From an uncultured Candidatus Saccharibacteria bacterium (GTDB lineage Bacteria > Patescibacteriota > Minisyncoccia > SW-4-49-11), in contig CAZPCB010000004.1 in assembly GCA_964585065.1 (NCBI GenBank), positions 1 to 37,819 of the forward strand: a DNA stretch of 37,819 nt. The letters run 5' to 3'. Numbering within the stretch: position 1 is the first letter of the stretch; each line of letters opens with the position of its first letter. This document shows positions 6,631 to 22,845 of this stretch, piece after piece. The position numbers and the translations under genes are program-made. Below the pieces are notes generated by a model. The model was not told the DNA's origin. It saw only the letters and a list, made by a program, of their open reading frames with translations, and searched no databases.

Positions 6631-7899
6631 ATGAAAATTACTCGAAAAAATCTTCCTAAATCACAAGTAGAACTTAATGTCACTATAGAGCAAGCTGAAA
6701 TGGTTACCTATATTGATAAAACAACAGCTCGACTTGCCAAACAAATTACTATTCCTGGATTTCGAAAAGGTGAAGCTCCAAAAGAATTAGTAGCTAAGCA
6801 AATTAGTGGACCAGAGCTATTAAATGAAACCATTGAATATGCTGTCAATGAATCCTATAAGAGCGCAATAAAAGATGAGAAATTATCTCCACTTGCCAAT
6901 CCGGAAATCAAATTATCTGAGAAAGAATCAAAAGATGGATTAGAATATACTGCTACTATTAGCATTATGCCAGAAATTGAGCTTCCAGATTACAAAAAAT
7001 TGGCAAGCAAAATAACTAAAGAAGCAGAAGATATTACGGATAAAGATGTAGAAGAGGCTAAAAAGTATTTACAAAAATCTCGTGGTACTCAAACTATTGT
7101 AGAGAGAAAGGCAAAAAAAGGAGACACTGTATCTATCAGCTATACATTAACAGTTGAGGGAAAAGAATTTGATAAATCTGAGGCAATGCCAGTAGAAATT
7201 GGTGCAGGGAAATTCATTCCTGGATTTGAAGATGAGGTAATTGGACTTAAGGCTGAAGATAAAAAAGAATTTGATATTCCCTTTCCAAAAGATTATCATA
7301 ATGTTGAATTAGCAGGAAAATTAGGACATTTTGCTATTGAAATCAAAGATGTACAAGAAATTATATTACCTGATTGGGATGAAACTTTTGCCAAAGAACT
7401 CAGCAATGGGGAGAAAACTATTGCGGATCTAGAACAAAGCCTTAAAGATGGACTTATTGCAGAGCGCAAGCAAGAAGTTCAAACTACATATACTCAAGCT
7501 ATAGTTGATGCTATATTAGCTAAGATACAAGTTGAGCTACCAGATGTATTAGTGCTTGCTGAACGCGATCAAATTATTCAAGAAATGGAGCAAAGAGCTC
7601 TTTATTCAGGACATACTCTGGATGATGCGCTGGCTCAGGCTGGGAAAACCCGAGAAGCATTATTAGAAGAAGCTCTGCCACAAGCTGAATCAAGAGTAAA
7701 ATTAATGCTTATCTTAAAAGCAATTACGGAAGAGCAAAAATTCATTGCCGATGAAAAAGAAGTAAAACATCGAATTCATCATATTCTTGAGAAATATTCA
7801 GAAAAGGAACAACAGCAAATTGATATGGAGCGACTTCGTATTATGGTATCAGCGGAGATAACCGATAAAATGGCTTTAGAGTATTTAGGGAATATATAA
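6631..7899 (+). CDS. tig: Trigger factor
   Basis: Ribosome-binding motif IPGFRKGEAP, FKBP domain (FIPGFEDEVIG) and C-terminal chaperone domain. Confidence 0.95.
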   Translation: MKITRKNLPKSQVELNVTIEQAEMVTYIDKTTARLAKQITIPGFRKGEAPKELVAKQISGPELLNETIEYAVNESYKSAIKDEKLSPLANPEIKLSEKESKDGLEYTATISIMPEIELPDYKKLASKITKEAEDITDKDVEEAKKYLQKSRGTQTIVERKAKKGDTVSISYTLTVEGKEFDKSEAMPVEIGAGKFIPGFEDEVIGLKAEDKKEFDIPFPKDYHNVELAGKLGHFAIEIKDVQEIILPDWDETFAKELSNGEKTIADLEQSLKDGLIAERKQEVQTTYTQAIVDAILAKIQVELPDVLVLAERDQIIQEMEQRALYSGHTLDDALAQAGKTREALLEEALPQAESRVKLMLILKAITEEQKFIADEKEVKHRIHHILEKYSEKEQQQIDMERLRIMVSAEITDKMALEYLGNI

Positions 7900-7908
7900 T
7901 ATAATTAG

Positions 7909-7946
7909 GTATAAAAGAGATAATAAGAGTATTATCTCTTTTATAC
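7909..7946 (+). terminator. Intrinsic terminator after tig
   Basis: Perfect 17-bp stem gtataaaagagataata / tattatctcttttatac, loop agag. Confidence 0.8.
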
Positions 7947-7987
7947 TATACATTTATTGATAAATTCATTATAATAACTGTATATAC

Positions 7988-8061
7988 GCGCGTATAGCTC
8001 AGCTGGTTAGAGCGCATCCTTGACGTGGATGAGGTCAATGGTTCGAATCCATTTATGCGCA
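7988..8061 (+). tRNA. tRNA-Val (anticodon GAC), CCA not encoded
   Basis: Acceptor GCGCGTA/TATGCGC, D-arm GCTC-AGCTGGTTA-GAGC, anticodon arm CATCC-TTGACGT-GGATG, T-arm AATGG-TTCGAAT-CCATT, discriminator A followed by CTA. Confidence 0.95.
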
Positions 8062-8063
8062 CT

Positions 8064-9488
8064 ATGAAATATATTATCCCGAATACCAGTTTGGCGATAC
8101 AATTAGGTATATTGAGCGGAGCCTTGCTGGGCTCTTTTTTTGTATTACAGTCAATATGGATATTATTGACTATTCCCTTTGTAATAGCAATATATTGGCT
8201 TTATTCAGATATACGACTTATGCTACTCGCTGCAACTCTGATTGGGTTTATTGGAGCTGGATATTATATCAATACTATTATTGATAATTATCATACAATT
8301 CAAGATAGTATCCCTAATCGTATAGAGAATACAGAAATCATTATTGAGTCAAGTCCACGCCTACAGGCTTTTGGCTATCAATATCGGGTATATATACCCA
8401 AATATAAGGCCAAGGTCTTTATGAGTATTACAGATGATAATTTGATATATGGTAAGCGAATTATCGTAAAGGGAAAAACTTCAATCCCAGAAGAAGAGGG
8501 GATTAGGAGATTTTTATTGGGAAGAGGAATTCACAGGTATATGACTATTTCAGATTATACAATACAAGCTAATAATAGCTGTAATATACAATGCCATATA
8601 ATGCGAAATATTATACAAATGCAAAAGGGAATTATTAATAAAATTGATTCAGCTTATCCCAATCAAGTAGGAGAATTCTTAAAAGGTATTCTTATAGGCT
8701 ATACAGATACATTACCAACCGAGATAAAGGAATCATTCAAAAAGACGGGAGTAAGCCATATTTTGGCTGTTTCAGGATATAATATGGCAATTATTATAGT
8801 ACTTGTATATCAGCAGCTCATTAATAGACAAATATATAGGCAATTTTCATTTTGGATTACTATTGCAGTTATGATAGTATTCACTCTTTTAACCGGGGCT
8901 GAGGCTTCTATTATGCGGGCGGGTATATTTGCTGTAATTATACTCTCAGCAGAACAATTACAAAGATATGTAGGAGGTATGAGACCCCTGACATTATGTG
9001 CTACTATGTTAGTATTAATAAATCCTCTGTATATTGGCTATGATATTGGATTTCAATTATCATTCCTGGCAGTAATAGGACTTATAGTATATGGGCAATT
9101 ATTCAAAACATATACGGAAGGAATACCGAGCCTTGGAATATTACCAATGATAGGGGAGACATTATTTGCTCAAATTTTAGTATTACCATTACTCATATAT
9201 TATTTTGGACAAATATCCCTTATATCTATTATCGCTAATATACTTATTGTGCCTATCATACCTTTTGCGATGGCTTGGGGTAGTATTACGGCTTTGATTT
9301 TACCATGGAGGATTTTTACCTATCCTCTTGTGATTATTATTCAATTAGTGCTCGCCATGAATCATTATTTAGCCTCTCTATCATGGGCTAGCATAACAGT
9401 TCCTCATATAACAGGCTATATGCTAATTATAATATACGCTATAATGGGATTAGGATATTGGATTTATATACATAAAAGGAAAATATGA
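8064..9488 (+). CDS. comEC: ComEC/Rec2 competence membrane channel (OB and Competence domains), lacking the MBL domain
   Basis: KTGVSHILAVSGYN, LTGAEASIMRAG, DIGFQLSFLAV, SIIANILIVP. Start moved from the GTG at 8025 (inside the tRNA) to the ATG at 8064. Confidence 0.9.
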   Translation: MKYIIPNTSLAIQLGILSGALLGSFFVLQSIWILLTIPFVIAIYWLYSDIRLMLLAATLIGFIGAGYYINTIIDNYHTIQDSIPNRIENTEIIIESSPRLQAFGYQYRVYIPKYKAKVFMSITDDNLIYGKRIIVKGKTSIPEEEGIRRFLLGRGIHRYMTISDYTIQANNSCNIQCHIMRNIIQMQKGIINKIDSAYPNQVGEFLKGILIGYTDTLPTEIKESFKKTGVSHILAVSGYNMAIIIVLVYQQLINRQIYRQFSFWITIAVMIVFTLLTGAEASIMRAGIFAVIILSAEQLQRYVGGMRPLTLCATMLVLINPLYIGYDIGFQLSFLAVIGLIVYGQLFKTYTEGIPSLGILPMIGETLFAQILVLPLLIYYFGQISLISIIANILIVPIIPFAMAWGSITALILPWRIFTYPLVIIIQLVLAMNHYLASLSWASITVPHITGYMLIIIYAIMGLGYWIYIHKRKI

Positions 9489-17210: not shown

Positions 17211-17249
17211 AAGTATAAAACAGTTATCCACTATTATCAGAAAGGATAA

Positions 17250-17280
17250 AATTATGATATACTACTAGTATATCATAATT
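17250..17280. promoter_or_regulatory. Perfect 14-3-14 palindrome forming face-to-face extended -10 boxes for uvrC and pspC
   Basis: AATTATGATATACT-act-AGTATATCATAATT; each arm contains TGATATACT. Confidence 0.75.
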
Positions 17281-17292
17281 TTAATATTAGTT

Positions 17293-17775
17293 ATGGCGAT
17301 TAAAACAAAAAAGCGGTTATATAAATCGACAAATTATAGGGTTTTTACAGGCGTAGCAGCGGGCCTCGCTGATTATTTGGATGCACCCCATTCTTCTATT
17401 AGAATACTATTTATTTTATTAACCCTTGCTAGCGGTATAGGTTTAGTATTCTACTTAGCTTTATCAGTACTTTTACCTACTGAACAGGAGGTGGTAGAAC
17501 AAGAAGATCTTGAATTTTATCAAACAGCTGTGCAGGGTTTACAAAGTAAGGAGGGAAATACAATAGCAAGAAAGTCTACATTTTTAGATGAGCTCATTAC
17601 TCCTCAAAATATTATGGCTATAAGTATTTTATTTTTCGGCGGATTTATCTTACAATTTGATATTGTTCCTTGGGCTCTTATTCCAGATACATGGAGATAT
17701 CCAGCTTTAATTATCACAGTAGGAATAGCTTTCATATTAAAAAGTCTTACCGTTAAAAAATCTAATATTGTATAA
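17293..17775 (+). CDS. pspC: PspC domain protein with C-terminal LiaI/LiaF-like TM segment
   Basis: RLYKSTNYRVFTGVAAGLADYLD...IRILFILL...GIGLVFYLALSVLLP is a PspC signature; C-terminal WRYPALIITVGIAFIL. Confidence 0.85.
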   Translation: MAIKTKKRLYKSTNYRVFTGVAAGLADYLDAPHSSIRILFILLTLASGIGLVFYLALSVLLPTEQEVVEQEDLEFYQTAVQGLQSKEGNTIARKSTFLDELITPQNIMAISILFFGGFILQFDIVPWALIPDTWRYPALIITVGIAFILKSLTVKKSNIV

Positions 17776-17777
17776 AT

Positions 17778-18728
17778 ATGTCAGGAATTATTATTGAACC
17801 AGAAGAAAAAAAACCAAATTCTTTTATAGGAATATTTTCTCATTTAGGTATACTATATATTCTCATTTTAGGTATTAGCTTAGGGATTGTATATTATCAA
17901 GGAGTATTTCAAGATAATTATCTTTCCATATATATACCTTTTAGCCATATTTGGCCACTTGCTTTGATTGCAGTGGGATTATCCATATTTCGAGTAAAAA
18001 GTTCAGCATCATTAAGTGTGGGTTTGTTTTTGATGGTATTGGCCACTGCTATTACTATGTTCTCAGTATTTATAAGAGCAGATGCTATTGATACTAATAC
18101 TCAAATAATATCAGGTTCAGTAAATAATGTGAAAAGTATTTATGCTGATATATCAACAACATCTACAAATATATCAGTTAAAGGGGGAGGTACTGGTATT
18201 GATGGGCAGTACACAGCTAATTATGGGGTATTAATAAATACTATTACAACTGATACAGATGCTGTTCAAACTATTAATCTTAGACAATTAGATATTCAAC
18301 CAGGTTTTGGTTCATATAGTAAAAAATTAGATATAATATTGCCCAATAATATCCCAACTATATTTGATATTACCGCTAATATTTCACCACTCTCATTAGA
18401 TTTAAAGGGGATAGTATTGAAATCTGCTAATATTACTCTTAGAGCTTCTCAAGCTAATATTGTCATAGATCAAATCGAGACAACCACAAATCTCAATATT
18501 ACTTCTACTGCAAGTCAAGTCACACTTAGTATTCCACGTAATATAAAGGTATTATTATCTACGTCTCACAGTTTTACCTCCAATGATTTTATTGGGCTTA
18601 CTCAAAAAGGAGTAGATTCAAAAGTATATGAAAGTCAAAATTATCAGGTCTCAAGTGACAATGAGGAGAAAACCATAACATTAAATCTTAATTCCACATC
18701 TTCTCAAATAAAGGTGATACAAAAATAA
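17778..18728 (+). CDS. Membrane protein with LiaF-like TM region and extracytoplasmic beta-solenoid (toast-rack-like) domain
   Basis: Three hydrophobic helices including HIWPLALIAVGLSIF, followed by repetitive beta-strand sequence. Operonic with pspC. Confidence 0.65.
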   Translation: MSGIIIEPEEKKPNSFIGIFSHLGILYILILGISLGIVYYQGVFQDNYLSIYIPFSHIWPLALIAVGLSIFRVKSSASLSVGLFLMVLATAITMFSVFIRADAIDTNTQIISGSVNNVKSIYADISTTSTNISVKGGGTGIDGQYTANYGVLINTITTDTDAVQTINLRQLDIQPGFGSYSKKLDIILPNNIPTIFDITANISPLSLDLKGIVLKSANITLRASQANIVIDQIETTTNLNITSTASQVTLSIPRNIKVLLSTSHSFTSNDFIGLTQKGVDSKVYESQNYQVSSDNEEKTITLNLNSTSSQIKVIQK

Positions 18729-18729
18729 T

Positions 18730-19128
18730 ATGATTATAGAAACTGCAGAATATAATGCAAAATTAATAGGCATATTCATTAAATGGTATTGGGTGGAAAT
18801 GCCATATAGAATTATTCGTAAAACAATACAATATATTGTAGTATTAGGCAAAATTTTCTCTTTTGCTTTTCTTATTAAAACATTTTTTGCCCCTTGGAAA
18901 AATCAATTATATGCCTATCCAAGCAAGGGGTTTGATATAAAGCACATATTTGAGGTATGGACTTCTAATATGATATCAAGAATAGTAGGAGCTTTTGTAA
19001 GAGGATTTACGATATTATTTGGTATCCTTACTGTTATTGTATTAGCTTTTCTAGGATCTGTAGGACTAGTAATATGGGTGTTATATCCTGTATTATTTAT
19101 CTTTTTTATTATACAAAGTCTTTCATAA
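18730..19128 (+). CDS. Uncharacterised integral membrane protein
   Basis: 132 aa with hydrophobic helices and the motifs WYW, FFAPWK, SRIVGAFVR. One-nt gaps to both neighbours. Confidence 0.75.
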   Translation: MIIETAEYNAKLIGIFIKWYWVEMPYRIIRKTIQYIVVLGKIFSFAFLIKTFFAPWKNQLYAYPSKGFDIKHIFEVWTSNMISRIVGAFVRGFTILFGILTVIVLAFLGSVGLVIWVLYPVLFIFFIIQSLS

Positions 19129-19129
19129 T

Positions 19130-21574
19130 ATGAAGTATTTTTATTCTATATATCATACCCGAACATTCTTTAGTAATATATTAGAGAAAATTATATTTAA
19201 TTGGCTGAGCTATATTATCTGGCTTGTTTTTATTGGTATTGTCACCTTAATTACCTATAATACAGCAAATTATCAATTAGCTATAATTCTTATCGGAACC
19301 AGTATTTATATATATGTAGTTGCCTATTTATTTATTATTCTGAAATTACGATCAGATAAAGATGCTTTTATATTCCCCAATAATTATGCTGAAATATTTG
19401 ATTATGATTTAGCACAATATTTAGTAAGATATTTCCCAAAGGAATTAAGTTATAGTCAGCTTATACATGCGGTTACGAGGAGTAAGAGGGGACAGGATAT
19501 ATTATCATATATGGGATTAGTACCAGATGCTTTTTATACAAAATTAAAAGATTTAGGCTTGGACACGGATCCGAATCTTCCTCCAATAGATGAATTACTC
19601 GCAAGAATACAATATGTAAAAGATTCATGGGAAGAATATCGAATAGGGGGGCATATTATTCTGTATGTCTTGTTTGAACAGGAAGGAATATTTACCACCA
19701 TATTAAATCAATTAGATTTATCTAAAGAAGACTTTTTACAAATTATTTCTTGGGAAGCTTTGCATTATCATAATACTATTCCTATATCAATATGGAGTCC
19801 CGAGGGAGTTGAGAAGAATTTTGGGGCGCTGGGAAGATCATGGACAATTGGCTATACCAATGATTTAGATAGGATTACTGAGGATATATCAGAGAAAATT
19901 ATATATCGTGATCCCCATCGGGTTATTATCCATCAAGATATTTTACGACGCATATTAACAAGCCTTTCTAAATCAACTCGACATAATATTCTCCTATTGG
20001 GAAATATTGGGGTTGGGAAAAAATCACTGATTGAGAATTTAGCCTTCACTATAAGGCAATATCAAATTCAGCATAATGATAATCTTACTCGTATTCTCAA
20101 ATTACAAACAACAGATTTACTATCTGGTACTGCAGATGCTCCACAATATTTATTGAAGGCTTTAAATTATGCTGAACATTCAGGAAATATTATTCTTGTT
20201 ATTGAGAATATTTCAGAATTATTTATATCTGCAGATGATGCGATACGTAACATTATTGTAAAATTTCTGAATTCACGTCATATTAATGTTATTGGTATAG
20301 ATAATCCGGAAGGGTATCATAACGGGGTGAAAAGCTTTCCCATTATTGATAGCTTATTTGAATCAATGCCTGTAGAAGATGCTTCTCCTAAAGATACAAT
20401 GAATGTATTGATGATGACATCATTTGATTTAACAAGACAATATAATAAATATATTACCTATCAATCCCTGAGAGCGGTGATGAGCTTCTCAGAGAGATAT
20501 ATTAGTAAGGGGGGATTTCCTGGTAAATCAGTAGAAATTTTATCAGATGCAGTAAATCAAGCCAATATAGAAGATAGCCCTTTTGTATTAGAGCATCATA
20601 TTCGTACTGTGGTATCTGAGAGAACCAATATGAATATTAATGAATTACAGAATACAGAGAAAGATGCATTATTGTCTCTAGAGGAAAAATTACAAGCTGA
20701 AATAAAGGGGCAGCCAGAAGGGTTAACTGCCTTATCAAATGCCCTAAAACGTGCTCAATTAGATGTAAAATCACGCAATAAGCCGGTGGGAACATTTCTT
20801 TTCCTAGGACCTACTGGAGTTGGAAAAACAGAAACTGCTAAGGCTCTAGCTAAACATTATTTTGGATCAAAGGATAGAATGATTCGTATGGATATGAATG
20901 AATTTGGAAGACCAGATTCAGTATATGGAATATTAGGTAGCCCAGCTGGAGAAGATACTAGTTTCCAAGAAGGATTCTTGACAAAACGGGTTCAAGATAA
21001 GCCATTTTCATTGATATTATTAGATGAAATTGAAAAAGCTCATCCTCAGGTTTTGAATATATTCTTGCAAATTTTAGATGAAGGATTCTTGACTGATAAT
21101 AGAGGTATACGCACAGATTTTAGAAATACTATTATTATTGCTACTTCTAATGCTGGAGCCTTATTCTTGCGTAATTTTGTAAGAGAACATCCCACCTTTG
21201 ATAAAGCAGCCTTTAAACAGGAGTTAATAGATACTATTATTCAAGGAAAAGAATTTGCCCCTGAATTTATTAATCGTTTTACGGAAGTTATTGTCTATTA
21301 TCCATTACAACTTGAAACAGTAGCTGAAATTGCTGCTAAAATGATAGAAAATCTCTCTGAGAGATTTGATCAAGAAAGAGGTGTGAAATTAGAAATTGAG
21401 CCAGATGCAATTGCCTATCTTGCTGAGCAAGGATATAGTCCAGATTTTGGAGCAAGAGAATTAGAGCGTACAGTATCATCCATATTAGAAACATATTTAG
21501 CCAATTATCTCCTTATTAATCAGGTCAAAAGGGGAGACCATATTATTATTACCAAAGATAATATTACAAAATAA
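19130..21574 (+). CDS. Membrane-anchored ClpA/ClpB-family two-ring AAA+ ATPase with degenerate NBD1
   Basis: Two N-terminal TM helices. NBD1 GNIGVGKKS / ILVIENISE; NBD2 FLFLGPTGVGKTETAKALA, LLDEIEKAHP, TSN, PEFINR, GARELER. Confidence 0.9.
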   Translation: MKYFYSIYHTRTFFSNILEKIIFNWLSYIIWLVFIGIVTLITYNTANYQLAIILIGTSIYIYVVAYLFIILKLRSDKDAFIFPNNYAEIFDYDLAQYLVRYFPKELSYSQLIHAVTRSKRGQDILSYMGLVPDAFYTKLKDLGLDTDPNLPPIDELLARIQYVKDSWEEYRIGGHIILYVLFEQEGIFTTILNQLDLSKEDFLQIISWEALHYHNTIPISIWSPEGVEKNFGALGRSWTIGYTNDLDRITEDISEKIIYRDPHRVIIHQDILRRILTSLSKSTRHNILLLGNIGVGKKSLIENLAFTIRQYQIQHNDNLTRILKLQTTDLLSGTADAPQYLLKALNYAEHSGNIILVIENISELFISADDAIRNIIVKFLNSRHINVIGIDNPEGYHNGVKSFPIIDSLFESMPVEDASPKDTMNVLMMTSFDLTRQYNKYITYQSLRAVMSFSERYISKGGFPGKSVEILSDAVNQANIEDSPFVLEHHIRTVVSERTNMNINELQNTEKDALLSLEEKLQAEIKGQPEGLTALSNALKRAQLDVKSRNKPVGTFLFLGPTGVGKTETAKALAKHYFGSKDRMIRMDMNEFGRPDSVYGILGSPAGEDTSFQEGFLTKRVQDKPFSLILLDEIEKAHPQVLNIFLQILDEGFLTDNRGIRTDFRNTIIIATSNAGALFLRNFVREHPTFDKAAFKQELIDTIIQGKEFAPEFINRFTEVIVYYPLQLETVAEIAAKMIENLSERFDQERGVKLEIEPDAIAYLAEQGYSPDFGARELERTVSSILETYLANYLLINQVKRGDHIIITKDNITK

Positions 21575-21601: not shown

Positions 21602-21630
21602 TTGAAAAAATCCTTATTTTATGCTATAAT
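21602..21630 (+). promoter_or_regulatory. hrcA promoter, predicted near-leaderless mRNA
   Basis: TTGAAA - 17 nt - TATAAT (TGCTATAAT). The ATG is only 8 nt after the -10 box. Confidence 0.7.
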
Positions 21631-21638
21631 AAGTTTAT

Positions 21639-22358
21639 ATGGATGAGAGAAAACAACAATTTTTAGAATATGTAATACTTGATCATATTGACACTGCGCA
21701 ACCAGTATCTTCTTTGAATATTCAAAAAAAATATCAATTACCATATTCTAGTGCTACTATCCGTAATGAATTAGCTGAATTAGAAGCTGAAGGGTATTTG
21801 ATGCAAGTACATACTTCTTCAGGTAGAATACCCACAGATAAAGGATATCGATATTATGTTAATCGGCTTTTGGGAAGACAAGAAATTTTGAGGCAATATG
21901 CATCAGTGACACATACATTTTTGAATGAGATGAATACTATACAAGAAATTCATTTAAAACTTAAAAATGTATTATTATCCTTTGCTCAAGAGTCTGGTAA
22001 TGTTGCTATGGGTAAATTATCAACAGATTTAATATTTGAAGAGGGGGTTGCTACTTTTTTGACTCAACCTGGATTTTCATCAGTAGAATTTATTCATAAT
22101 GCTTTGGAGGATTTAGAAGAAATTAAATCTCATATTGATGAAATAGGTCGTGATGTGAGTCAGGGTAGCTATAAATTATATATTGGGGAGGAAAGCCCAC
22201 ATACTTCTATGCATAATTACGCAGTTATTGTAGGTAAATTCTCAATTGACTCAGATGATGGTACAATAGTTGTAGTGGGACCTAAAGGTATGCAATATGC
22301 AAAAAATATAGCCCTCGTTGAATATATGCTTAATAATGATACATATGAAGAAGAATAA
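21639..22358 (+). CDS. hrcA: Heat-inducible transcription repressor HrcA (short form)
   Basis: PVSS...SSATIRNELAELEAEGYLMQVHTSSGRIPTDKGYRYYVN; IGEE...GTIVVVGPKGMQY. Confidence 0.93.
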   Translation: MDERKQQFLEYVILDHIDTAQPVSSLNIQKKYQLPYSSATIRNELAELEAEGYLMQVHTSSGRIPTDKGYRYYVNRLLGRQEILRQYASVTHTFLNEMNTIQEIHLKLKNVLLSFAQESGNVAMGKLSTDLIFEEGVATFLTQPGFSSVEFIHNALEDLEEIKSHIDEIGRDVSQGSYKLYIGEESPHTSMHNYAVIVGKFSIDSDDGTIVVVGPKGMQYAKNIALVEYMLNNDTYEEE

Positions 22359-22845
22359 ATTAGATCAAGATAATACTGGTATAGAAGAAGTAACTATTCA
22401 AGAATTACAAGAGACTATTTCTCGTCTAGAACAAGATTTAGGACATAATTTAGCTGGTTGGCAAAGAGCTCAGGCTGATTATCAGAATTTAAAAAGAGAA
22501 TCTGATAGATTGCGAGTAGAAAGTATACAGCTTGCAAATAAAAATCTTATTGAGACATTAATTCCCGTTTTTGATAATTTTGCATTAGCCCTAAAGCATC
22601 TCCCAACTGAATTAGCTGATAATACATGGGTTCAAGGTATTACCTATATACATAAGCAATTACAAGATATTCTATTAGCAGAAGGGGTGGAAATTATTAA
22701 TCCATTAGGACAGGAATTCAATCCGCATATTCATGAGGCAGTTGACAGTGAGGGAGAAGGGAATACAATTACTGAAGTATTGCAGGTAGGATATACATTG
22801 CATGGAGCATTAATTCGCTCAGCTCGAGTAAAAGTATCTTCATAA
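22345..22845 (+). CDS. grpE: Nucleotide exchange factor GrpE
   Basis: QRAQADYQNLKR, LIPVFDNF, GQEFNPHIHEAV, EVLQVGYTLHGALIRSARVKV. Start set to the ATG at 22345. Confidence 0.93.
   Translation: MKKNKLDQDNTGIEEVTIQELQETISRLEQDLGHNLAGWQRAQADYQNLKRESDRLRVESIQLANKNLIETLIPVFDNFALALKHLPTELADNTWVQGITYIHKQLQDILLAEGVEIINPLGQEFNPHIHEAVDSEGEGNTITEVLQVGYTLHGALIRSARVKVSS

Follow-up and report, generated by a model that had tools for sequence, protein, structure and literature searches.

The 37,819-nucleotide stretch of DNA analysed here (the window; contig CAZPCB010000004.1 of an uncultured Candidatus Saccharibacteria bacterium) encodes an 814-residue ATPase (19130–21574) and, directly before it, a membrane protein of 132 residues (18730–19128) that belongs to an uncharacterised family and is hereafter called the partner; these genes and all features described below lie on the plus strand unless otherwise stated. 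The ATPase is a double AAA+ protein of the class-I Clp/Hsp100 type, which an N-terminal helical hairpin anchors in the membrane; its first nucleotide-binding domain (NBD1) is degenerate and its second (NBD2) catalytically intact. The partner is obligate by linkage, its gene being either adjacent or fused to that of the ATPase, and the two genes make up an autonomous unit that occurs in more than half of the sampled Patescibacteria genomes. Clp/Hsp100 motors are the textbook case of hand-over-hand pulling of substrates by pore-loop tyrosines. The pair probably works differently from these textbook machines, and we give an even chance to the reading that it is a membrane AAA+ remodeller, coupled to the partner and not threading its substrates.

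The ATPase was delineated from its open reading frame (ORF), from HMMER, Pfam and NCBIfam matches, and from an AlphaFold2 (AF2) model. It has the two tandem AAA+ modules and the D2-small domain of class I Clp/Hsp100 proteins. NBD1 occupies positions 19916–20584 and NBD2 positions 20690–21295, the latter with a Pfam AAA_2 match (residues 551–719, 1.4e-46), and the D2-small (lid) domain follows at 21296–21571 (Pfam ClpB_D2-small, residues 726–807, 2.9e-19). NBD1 gives only sub-threshold P-loop matches in Pfam and aligns to the D1 module of ClpB at 3e-13. Scores against the NCBIfam models for ClpB, ClpA, ClpK, ClpV and ClpG amount to a quarter to a third of their cut-offs, and because they fall so far short, the ATPase belongs to none of these named equivalogs. 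The ClpB model (TIGR03346) reaches 353.6 bits against a cut-off of 1232, in two separate stretches, and the best full-length NCBIfam alignment is with ClpA (TIGR02639), over residues 165–808, at 341 bits against a cut-off of 993. The AF2 model, built from a 31-sequence family alignment, has a predicted local distance difference test (pLDDT) value of 86 and a predicted TM-score (pTM) of 0.77; its best PDB folds by Foldseek are ClpC, ClpB and ClpA protomers, with a TM-score of up to 0.86 (9gi1_f).

The N-terminal transmembrane (TM) hairpin (residues ~17–73; 19178–19348) comprises two predicted membrane helices, which appear as hydropathy windows at residues 17 and 48 and as AF2 helices 25–45 and 48–73, and nearly all family representatives have at least one TM segment. 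It is followed by a helical, Clp_N-like N-domain (19364–19915), modelled as ten helices, whose C-terminal end is the family-specific motif GRSWTIGYTNDLD; G235, W238, G241 and D247 of this domain are nearly invariant across the family. The N-domain aligns with the Clp_N domain of ClpB and with that of three relatives (P0047–P0049) which do match Pfam Clp_N, and the NCBIfam ClpA models match the ATPase from residue 145. The domain itself has no Pfam Clp_N or UVR match at E ≤ 0.01, and the combination seen in ClpC, a Pfam Clp_N domain with a short M-domain/UVR motif, is absent from the protein.

The catalytic motifs were mapped by HMMER alignment to Escherichia coli ClpB (PDB 4d2q, 1.2e-88). NBD1 has lost the Walker A threonine, the Walker B glutamate, sensor 1, both arginine fingers and the pore tyrosine, and hence the GK[ST], DE and arginine fingers of a catalytically competent class I module. 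In the Walker A motif GVGKKS (20000–20026; GNIGVGKKS, residues 291–299), K212/T213 of ClpB correspond to K297/K298, and in the Walker B motif IEN (20189–20218, within IILVIEN), D278/E279 correspond to E359/N360. The pore-loop remnant (20123–20152) is three residues shorter than in ClpB, with D336 in place of Tyr251. The sensor-1 stretch reads GIDN for GATT of ClpB, and the arginine-finger positions (20342–20365) hold S408/L409 for R331/R332.

On the other hand, NBD2 is canonical in all catalytic motifs, that is, Walker A (GPTGVGKT, 20807–20833), Walker B (LLDEIEKAH, 21011–21043), sensor 1 (ATSN, N674; 21131–21157), the arginine finger (FINRF, R716; 21260–21280) and sensor 2 (GAR, in the D2-small domain; 21449–21469). 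Its pore loop, GSPAGEDTSFQEGF (20936–20977), lacks the canonical tyrosine in the ClpB alignment: in the segment GSPAGEDTSFQEG, which starts at nucleotide 20936, E608 stands in place of Tyr653 of ClpB, and Phe612 aligns with E657. Neither aromatic pore loop of class I proteins, KYR in NBD1 or GYVG in NBD2, is thus present. A preliminary description of the gene, made by a model from the DNA letters, had already reported the Thr-to-Lys change in the first Walker A motif, a first Walker B motif other than hhhhDE, the loss of the NBD1 pore loop and arginine fingers, the full set of NBD2 catalytic motifs and an NBD2 pore loop without tyrosine. Each of these is borne out by the alignment, and the positions that it gave as about 20000, 20807 and 20936 are the exact first codons of residues 291, 560 and 603.

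The accessory elements by which other Clp proteins dock their partners are missing as well. No M-domain is found in the ATPase, which leaves a gap of ~127 columns against the ClpB control in the alignment, and therefore it has no docking site for DnaK or MecA. No [ILVM]G[FLM] tripeptide of a ClpP-docking loop occurs anywhere in NBD2, where the segment from sensor 1 to PEF measures 37 residues versus 39 in ClpB; MGL and LGL, at residues 128 and 142, are confined to the N-domain. The absence of a ClpB coiled coil and of an IGF/IGL motif had also been claimed in the preliminary description, and both hold, the latter for NBD2. The source genome (854 kb, 98.9% complete) contains no ClpP (PF00574), ClpX, ClpB or PspA. 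It does encode FtsH, Lon and DnaK, and the ATPase is its only AAA_2 protein above the cut-off, a second, weak match being DnaX. Cytosolic AAA+ proteolysis in this organism thus appears to depend on Lon and FtsH alone. With neither an IGF/IGL loop in the protein nor a ClpP in the genome, the possibility of a ClpP-dependent unfoldase was ruled out. The wider proposal, that the protein is not a classical unfoldase or disaggregase and may be a membrane machine with a single active ring, is supported as far as sequence comparison goes.

These features are shared by a large family. A word-indexed search retrieved 45 full-length relatives with 40–93% identity and the same length and N-terminus. An exhaustive HMMER scan of 1.84 billion cluster representatives gave at least 150 family matches, and the best 150 that were used are nearly all ~800–850 residues long with one continuous match across both modules. 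The family statistics cover ~150 clusters at 50% identity, in an alignment of 158 sequences, with 152 family members used for pore-loop and NBD1 motif counts. A profile scan of contigs with the ATPase alignment returned mostly ordinary ClpB/ClpC genes and only 13 family loci, because the patterns chosen were NBD2 motifs. Close homologues are labelled Parcubacteria and Patescibacteria, and the members are named ClpA, ClpC or 'AAA family ATPase' in databases. No paper describing the family was found, including in full-text searches on membrane-anchored Hsp100 proteins in candidate phyla radiation (CPR) bacteria.

NBD2 is the most conserved domain, with a mean pairwise identity of 0.53 versus 0.30 for NBD1. 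Each of its catalytic positions is kept in at least 156 of the 158 representatives (R716 in 157), and the sensor 2 GAR in at least 149. In NBD1, the Walker A lysine column of the same alignment holds Lys in 115 and Arg in 34 sequences, and the following position holds K/R in 74 sequences and T/S in 41. In Walker B, D/E/P precedes N/D/E, and the arginine-finger columns hold Ser, Asn, Lys or Leu. Among the 152 sequences counted, GK[ST] is found in 28, DE in 12, both in five, and any Arg at the finger columns in 13. The degenerate NBD1 is under strong purifying selection and is not drifting: compared with a 92%-identical relative, the ratio of nonsynonymous to synonymous substitution rates (dN/dS) is 0.029 in NBD1 versus 0.058 in NBD2. 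The first ring had previously been called 'dead'. This is right in that its catalytic motifs are lost, but the module is not decaying (dN/dS 0.03), and the Walker A Thr/Ser is kept in 28 of the 152 sequences.

The NBD2 inner pore loop is 0–12 residues long (median 7) and rich in Gly, Ser, Glu and Pro. None of the 152 representatives has a Gly-aromatic-hydrophobic-Gly motif in this loop; any aromatic residue is found in 35 loops and a tyrosine in 15. Of the loops, 96 carry a net negative charge, 13 a positive one and 43 none, so that the 'acidic pore' suggested earlier stands as a tendency only. The phenylalanine of DTSF in the present loop is Phe or Tyr in all nine aligned relatives with at least 69% identity, and at 41–63% identity an aromatic residue is found in only two of eight, one position off. 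An objection foreseen in the preliminary description, that this phenylalanine might occupy the pore, fails at the comparative level, only 35 of the 152 loops having any aromatic residue. The other objection raised there, that close homologues would prove to have GYVG and an intact NBD1, fails likewise. Tyrosine loss and NBD1 degeneracy, to judge from their conservation across ~150 clusters, are a trait of the family and not local decay.

Several variants were observed within or near the family. A subgroup of ~920 residues with a zinc ribbon (P0047–P0049; locus L007, 6001–8772) carries an N-terminal CxxC...CxxC before the TM segment, a Pfam-detectable Clp_N domain and the same degenerate NBD1, with Gly-Tyr in the NBD2 loop of two of three members; its locus has the small partner upstream and a glycosyltransferase family 4 (GT4) gene downstream. 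This zinc-ribbon-capped subgroup may be an evolutionary intermediate. Three outliers of ~1020–1030 residues (P0118, P0125 and P0176) have the NBD2-type motif DMSEY...GSPPGYV in the NBD1 position, which suggests tandem D2-D2 Clp proteins with intact tyrosines. In addition, three contigs of metagenome-assembled genomes titled 'uncultured Gammaproteobacteria bacterium' (L011, L014 and L030) carry a Patescibacteria-type pair, and L011 and L014 are also syntenic (GT4, rplU) with L013 and L016 from Magasanikbacteria. All three records appear to be mislabelled taxonomically.

The partner, which had gone unnoticed in the preliminary description, has no Pfam, NCBIfam or PDB-fold (Foldseek) relative, and its AF2 model is all-helical with a pLDDT of 90. 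Its stop codon lies one nucleotide before the ATPase start, and the two genes look translationally coupled. At all 17 loci collected via the ATPase, a partner homologue is directly upstream on the same strand or fused. Conversely, at 60 loci picked by partner matches alone from evenly sampled genomes of the phylum, the ATPase is directly downstream or fused in 59, and the sixtieth ends at a contig edge; the partner thus adjoins or is fused to the ATPase in all 76 scorable Patescibacteria loci. In-frame fusion of the partner to the ATPase N-terminus occurs in eight of the 60 loci and in about a sixth of the family representatives (~25 of 158). Such Rosetta-stone fusions are strong evidence for a physical partner–ATPase complex. 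In one fusion (L030) the partner takes the place of the hairpin of the ATPase itself, and because of this replacement the partner C-terminus is expected to be cytoplasmic and next to the N-domain. The partner profile matched 161 of the 301 Patescibacteria genomes sampled, and 143 of the 254 of high quality, nearly always in a single copy; the first number is a lower bound because partner sequences are short and divergent. A TM anchor, a degenerate NBD1, an intact NBD2, a variable non-aromatic pore loop and a partner upstream or fused, taken together as the marks of an unnamed family, are all found in the present pair.

In the source genome, the pair forms the second half of a putative four-gene membrane operon. 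A promoter-like site at 17234–17263 (9/12 match with TG before the -10 element, a consensus match only) precedes a gene for a 160-residue PspC-domain membrane protein (17293–17775; Pfam PspC, 2.7e-18). This first operon gene is followed by one for a 316-residue polytopic membrane protein (17778–18728) with a weak match to the LiaF C-terminal 'toast-rack' domain (Pfam LiaF-like_C, E = 0.003, below the cut-off; NCBIfam LiaF_C_term, 0.0028), and then by the partner and ATPase genes, with gaps of 2, 1 and 1 nucleotides. A second, strong promoter-like site at 21602–21630 (TTGAAA-17-TATAAT, 11/12 match with TG) precedes hrcA and would mark the 3′ boundary of the operon. Relatives with ATPase identities as low as 54% (L092–L096) still have the PspC gene before the module, with a gene of 309–323 residues in the position of the LiaF-like gene, and the arrangement persists where the flanks differ. 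These neighbours are missing from the 16 further family loci that were checked, one of them 46% identical, and do not figure among the recurrent neighbours of the 60 diverse loci chosen through the partner. A link to PspA/ESCRT-III via PspC was ruled out on these distributions, there being no PspA in the genome.

In the hrcA region (21602–22845), the near-consensus extended -10 promoter-like site lies only 8 nucleotides before the ATG. The hrcA gene overlaps with grpE, after which comes a WecA-like GT4 gene in place of dnaK, which is on another contig (G000:C1:128100–129887). Identification of the GT4 neighbour as MraY was rejected, since NCBIfam places it nearer WecA/TagO, though below both cut-offs. 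Among the relatives examined, hrcA-grpE is downstream of the ATPase only at 74–92% identity (e.g. L092 and L095), and the adjacency is lost at ≤57%. A functional partnership with hrcA-grpE was ruled out on this restricted adjacency and the separate promoter-like site of hrcA. At the 54%-identical relative L093, LemA and an M48 (HtpX-like) membrane peptidase are encoded downstream (7521–8999), and two PspC-domain genes precede the module. An antisense frame of ~100 codons in NBD2 (20700–21000, minus strand) recurs in 24 of 60 related loci and is most likely a shadow ORF arising from the conserved codon pattern, not a gene.

Across the family, gene neighbourhoods give a weak but repeated hint at envelope biogenesis. 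In the window, ftsZ lies 3.3 kb upstream. Among the 60 diverse loci, MraZ and MraW genes recur in 13, and genes for a DivIC-like protein, a class A penicillin-binding protein and a WecA/TagO-like GT4 in seven each; no further neighbour recurs in more than 13. The GT4 gene behind grpE in the window is of this same kind. Genes of the division and cell-wall (dcw) type flank 16 of the 60 loci, in five of which the pair stands between the divIC-like and GT4 genes. The gene order at five loci (L120, L122, L125, L137 and L144) is mraZ, mraW, divIC-like, partner, ATPase, WecA-like GT4, DUF192 and rplU. In the dcw clusters of model bacteria, the slot of the pair is where ftsI and the mur genes sit.

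Published genetics are available for a presumptive orthologue pair in Southlakia epibionticum. SEML1_0700 is an 860-residue 'AAA family ATPase' in the transposon-sequencing (Tn-seq) tables S1 and S2 of Wang et al. (Cell 2023, PMC10633639), with AAA_2 at residues 544–706, D2-small at 713–792 and no Clp_N match, and it is preceded by SEML1_0701, an overlapping hypothetical gene of 127 residues (PMC10633639). Both genes were classed as non-essential (NE) in passages 0 and 1 and as growth-defective (GD) in passage 2, with falling read counts (PMC10633639). If the orthology is correct, the two genes of the pair would share a Tn-seq phenotype. A canonical ClpC-like gene and clpP are found in that genome as well (PMC10633639), and because of this coexistence the family, again if the orthology holds, is a separate paralogue and not a degraded ClpC.

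With regard to mechanism, the ATPase would form a Clp-like hexamer; a hexameric ring fits because the inter-subunit arginine finger and sensor 2 of NBD2 are invariant. NBD1 would serve as a conserved, non-hydrolysing ring for assembly and coupling, and NBD2 as the sole motor. ATP hydrolysis is probably not used for axial threading, because both rings are without an aromatic loop, the element that threads in every characterised relative, and the NBD2 loop varies freely. The motions of NBD2 could pass via a rigid NBD1 and the N-domain to the membrane hairpins and to six partner subunits, and the output may be the remodelling or gating of the partner or of its membrane-protein clients, in a way that is Torsin-like rather than ClpB-like. 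The neighbourhoods point loosely to a role in envelope homeostasis, cell-wall synthesis or division, and in the source clade the pair seems to be placed in a PspC/LiaF-like envelope-stress operon. A more definite form of this proposal is a bacterial non-threading Hsp100 in a 6:6 complex, in which a single active ring, held by a pseudo-ATPase ring, would perform conformational work on a ring of partner and TM helices and so remodel or gate something in the membrane in the course of cell-wall synthesis, division or envelope stress; we put it forward tentatively, as a possibility well short of an even chance.

Several points weigh against the proposal of a non-threading remodeller. The case for non-threading is built on missing motifs and on relaxed conservation of the loop. 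Moreover, 35 of the 152 NBD2 loops still hold an aromatic residue, the nine relatives with at least 69% identity keep Phe or Tyr four residues past the canonical position, and two of the three zinc-ribbon members have Gly-Tyr, so some substrate gripping by loop aromatics may occur. The PspC/LiaF link is specific to the source clade, and the envelope/division signal is seen in only about a quarter of the loci. The orthology of the Southlakia genes, presumptive as it is, was assigned from domain coordinates and gene arrangement.

The first alternative is that the ATPase is a substrate-threading unfoldase with unconventional pore residues, i.e., a motor for the extraction and quality control of membrane proteins like FtsH or Msp1, for which the partner would be an adaptor or receptor. 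Such a motor would make use of the whole NBD2 catalytic apparatus and the invariant ring-forming arginine finger, and of the retained Clp_N-like N-domain, a domain that binds substrates or adaptors in relatives. The aromatic residues in 35 of the 152 loops, and the Phe or Tyr of the nine relatives with at least 69% identity, are also in its favour, as are the M48 peptidase and LemA genes downstream in L093, hrcA-grpE in the window, and the presence of FtsH and Lon as possible downstream proteases. However, the known threading AAA+ motors, including FtsH, Msp1 and ClpB, need an aromatic pore residue, and the aromatic-hydrophobic-Gly motif is found in none of the 152 representatives. With 0–12 residues and an abundance of Gly, Ser, Glu and Pro, the NBD2 loop is typical of a relaxed linker rather than of a working paddle, and the NBD1 pore loop is lost too. 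We consider a threading unfoldase rather unlikely.

The second alternative is a nucleotide-dependent switch or scaffold without mechanical output. In this case the nucleotide cycle of NBD2 would do no more than set when a membrane complex assembles and comes apart, and possible roles include the control of an enzyme of cell-wall synthesis or division and, jointly with PspC and the LiaF-like protein, the sensing of stress. The variable dcw-cluster neighbours, the PspC/LiaF-type sensor context of the source clade and the mild, late Tn-seq phenotype would agree with such a role, and Torsins provide a precedent as weak ATPases under the control of membrane cofactors (PMC5425593). The family, unlike Torsins, has its own arginine finger, sensors 1 and 2 and the Walker B glutamate in essentially all members, and such catalytic retention is typical of a fast, processive ring ATPase; that NBD2 is the most conserved domain also speaks against a switch. 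We regard this alternative as unlikely.

Torsins are also the nearest functional precedent for the proposed non-threading remodeller. They are Clp/Hsp100-related, membrane-associated proteins without aromatic pore loops that work with a transmembrane cofactor, and processive threading by them is considered improbable (review, PMC5425593). The likeness to the Torsin-LAP1/LULL1 system of the eukaryotic endoplasmic reticulum and nuclear envelope is a functional analogy only. Torsin is a single AAA+ module whose arginine finger is supplied by the cofactor, whereas the family has two modules and an invariant arginine finger of its own (R716, 157 of 158). In the Torsin system the degenerate AAA+ fold belongs to the cofactor; in the family the degenerate module, NBD1, is fused in cis to the active one, and the partner, a small helical protein of the membrane, has no AAA+ fold.

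A third alternative, that the protein substitutes for ClpB/ClpC as a membrane-tethered disaggregase of cytosolic aggregates working with DnaK and GrpE, is highly improbable. It would account for the ATPase being the sole Hsp100 of a 98.9%-complete genome that has DnaK, and for its position next to hrcA-grpE. On the other hand, the protein has no M-domain for DnaK docking and no pore tyrosines, hrcA has its own promoter-like site and its adjacency is lost at ≤57% identity, the presumptive Southlakia member occurs beside a canonical ClpC-like protein and ClpP, and the NCBIfam ClpB model gives 354 bits against a cut-off of 1232. Finally, a locally decaying gene or an annotation artefact, which the many lost NBD1 catalytic residues might suggest, can hardly be entertained given an intact frame, a whole-gene dN/dS of 0.064 against the 92%-identical relative and of 0.079 against an 82%-identical one, the same architecture in ~150 clusters and a confidently predicted fold.

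Comparison with other known systems sets the family apart from each of them. It resembles ClpA in fold and in domain order, with two AAA+ modules between a Clp_N-like domain and a D2-small lid and no coiled-coil M-domain, but it is membrane-anchored, its D1 is degenerate, neither ring has a pore tyrosine and the IGL loop is lacking. The highest similarity in both sequence and fold is to ClpB, Hsp104 and ClpC, in NBD2 and D2-small, and ClpB likewise has no ClpP loop; the family differs from these proteins in the absence of KYR and GYVG, an inactive NBD1, TM helices and an obligate membrane partner. FtsH, Msp1/ATAD1 and Bcs1 are likewise anchored by N-terminal TM segments that hold a hexameric AAA+ ring to the membrane surface, and they act in membrane-protein quality control, FtsH additionally with a protease domain. 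They are single-module AAA proteins of the classical clade with aromatic pore loops; none belongs to the Clp/Hsp100 clade and none has the partner described here. Pex1/Pex6, p97 and NSF are likewise double rings in which assembly falls to a structural ring of low activity and the motor work to an active one, but these are soluble proteins of another AAA clade that keep aromatic loops in the active ring and thread substrates.

The pair thus represents a large and widespread branch of Clp proteins that has lost the pore loops in both rings, silenced one ring, moved to the membrane and acquired an obligate partner, and yet is under strong purifying selection. The non-threading 6:6 machine, if correct, would add a mechanistic class that has yet to be described among Clp/Hsp100 proteins, and would match in prokaryotes the principle of Torsin and its cofactor. 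To understand the pair would be to learn what an AAA+ double ring can do without threading. It would also assign a role to two genes that are among the commonest uncharacterised ones of Patescibacteria, in which very few envelope and proteostasis systems have been characterised, and the presumptive orthologues in genetically tractable Saccharibacteria make the family testable.

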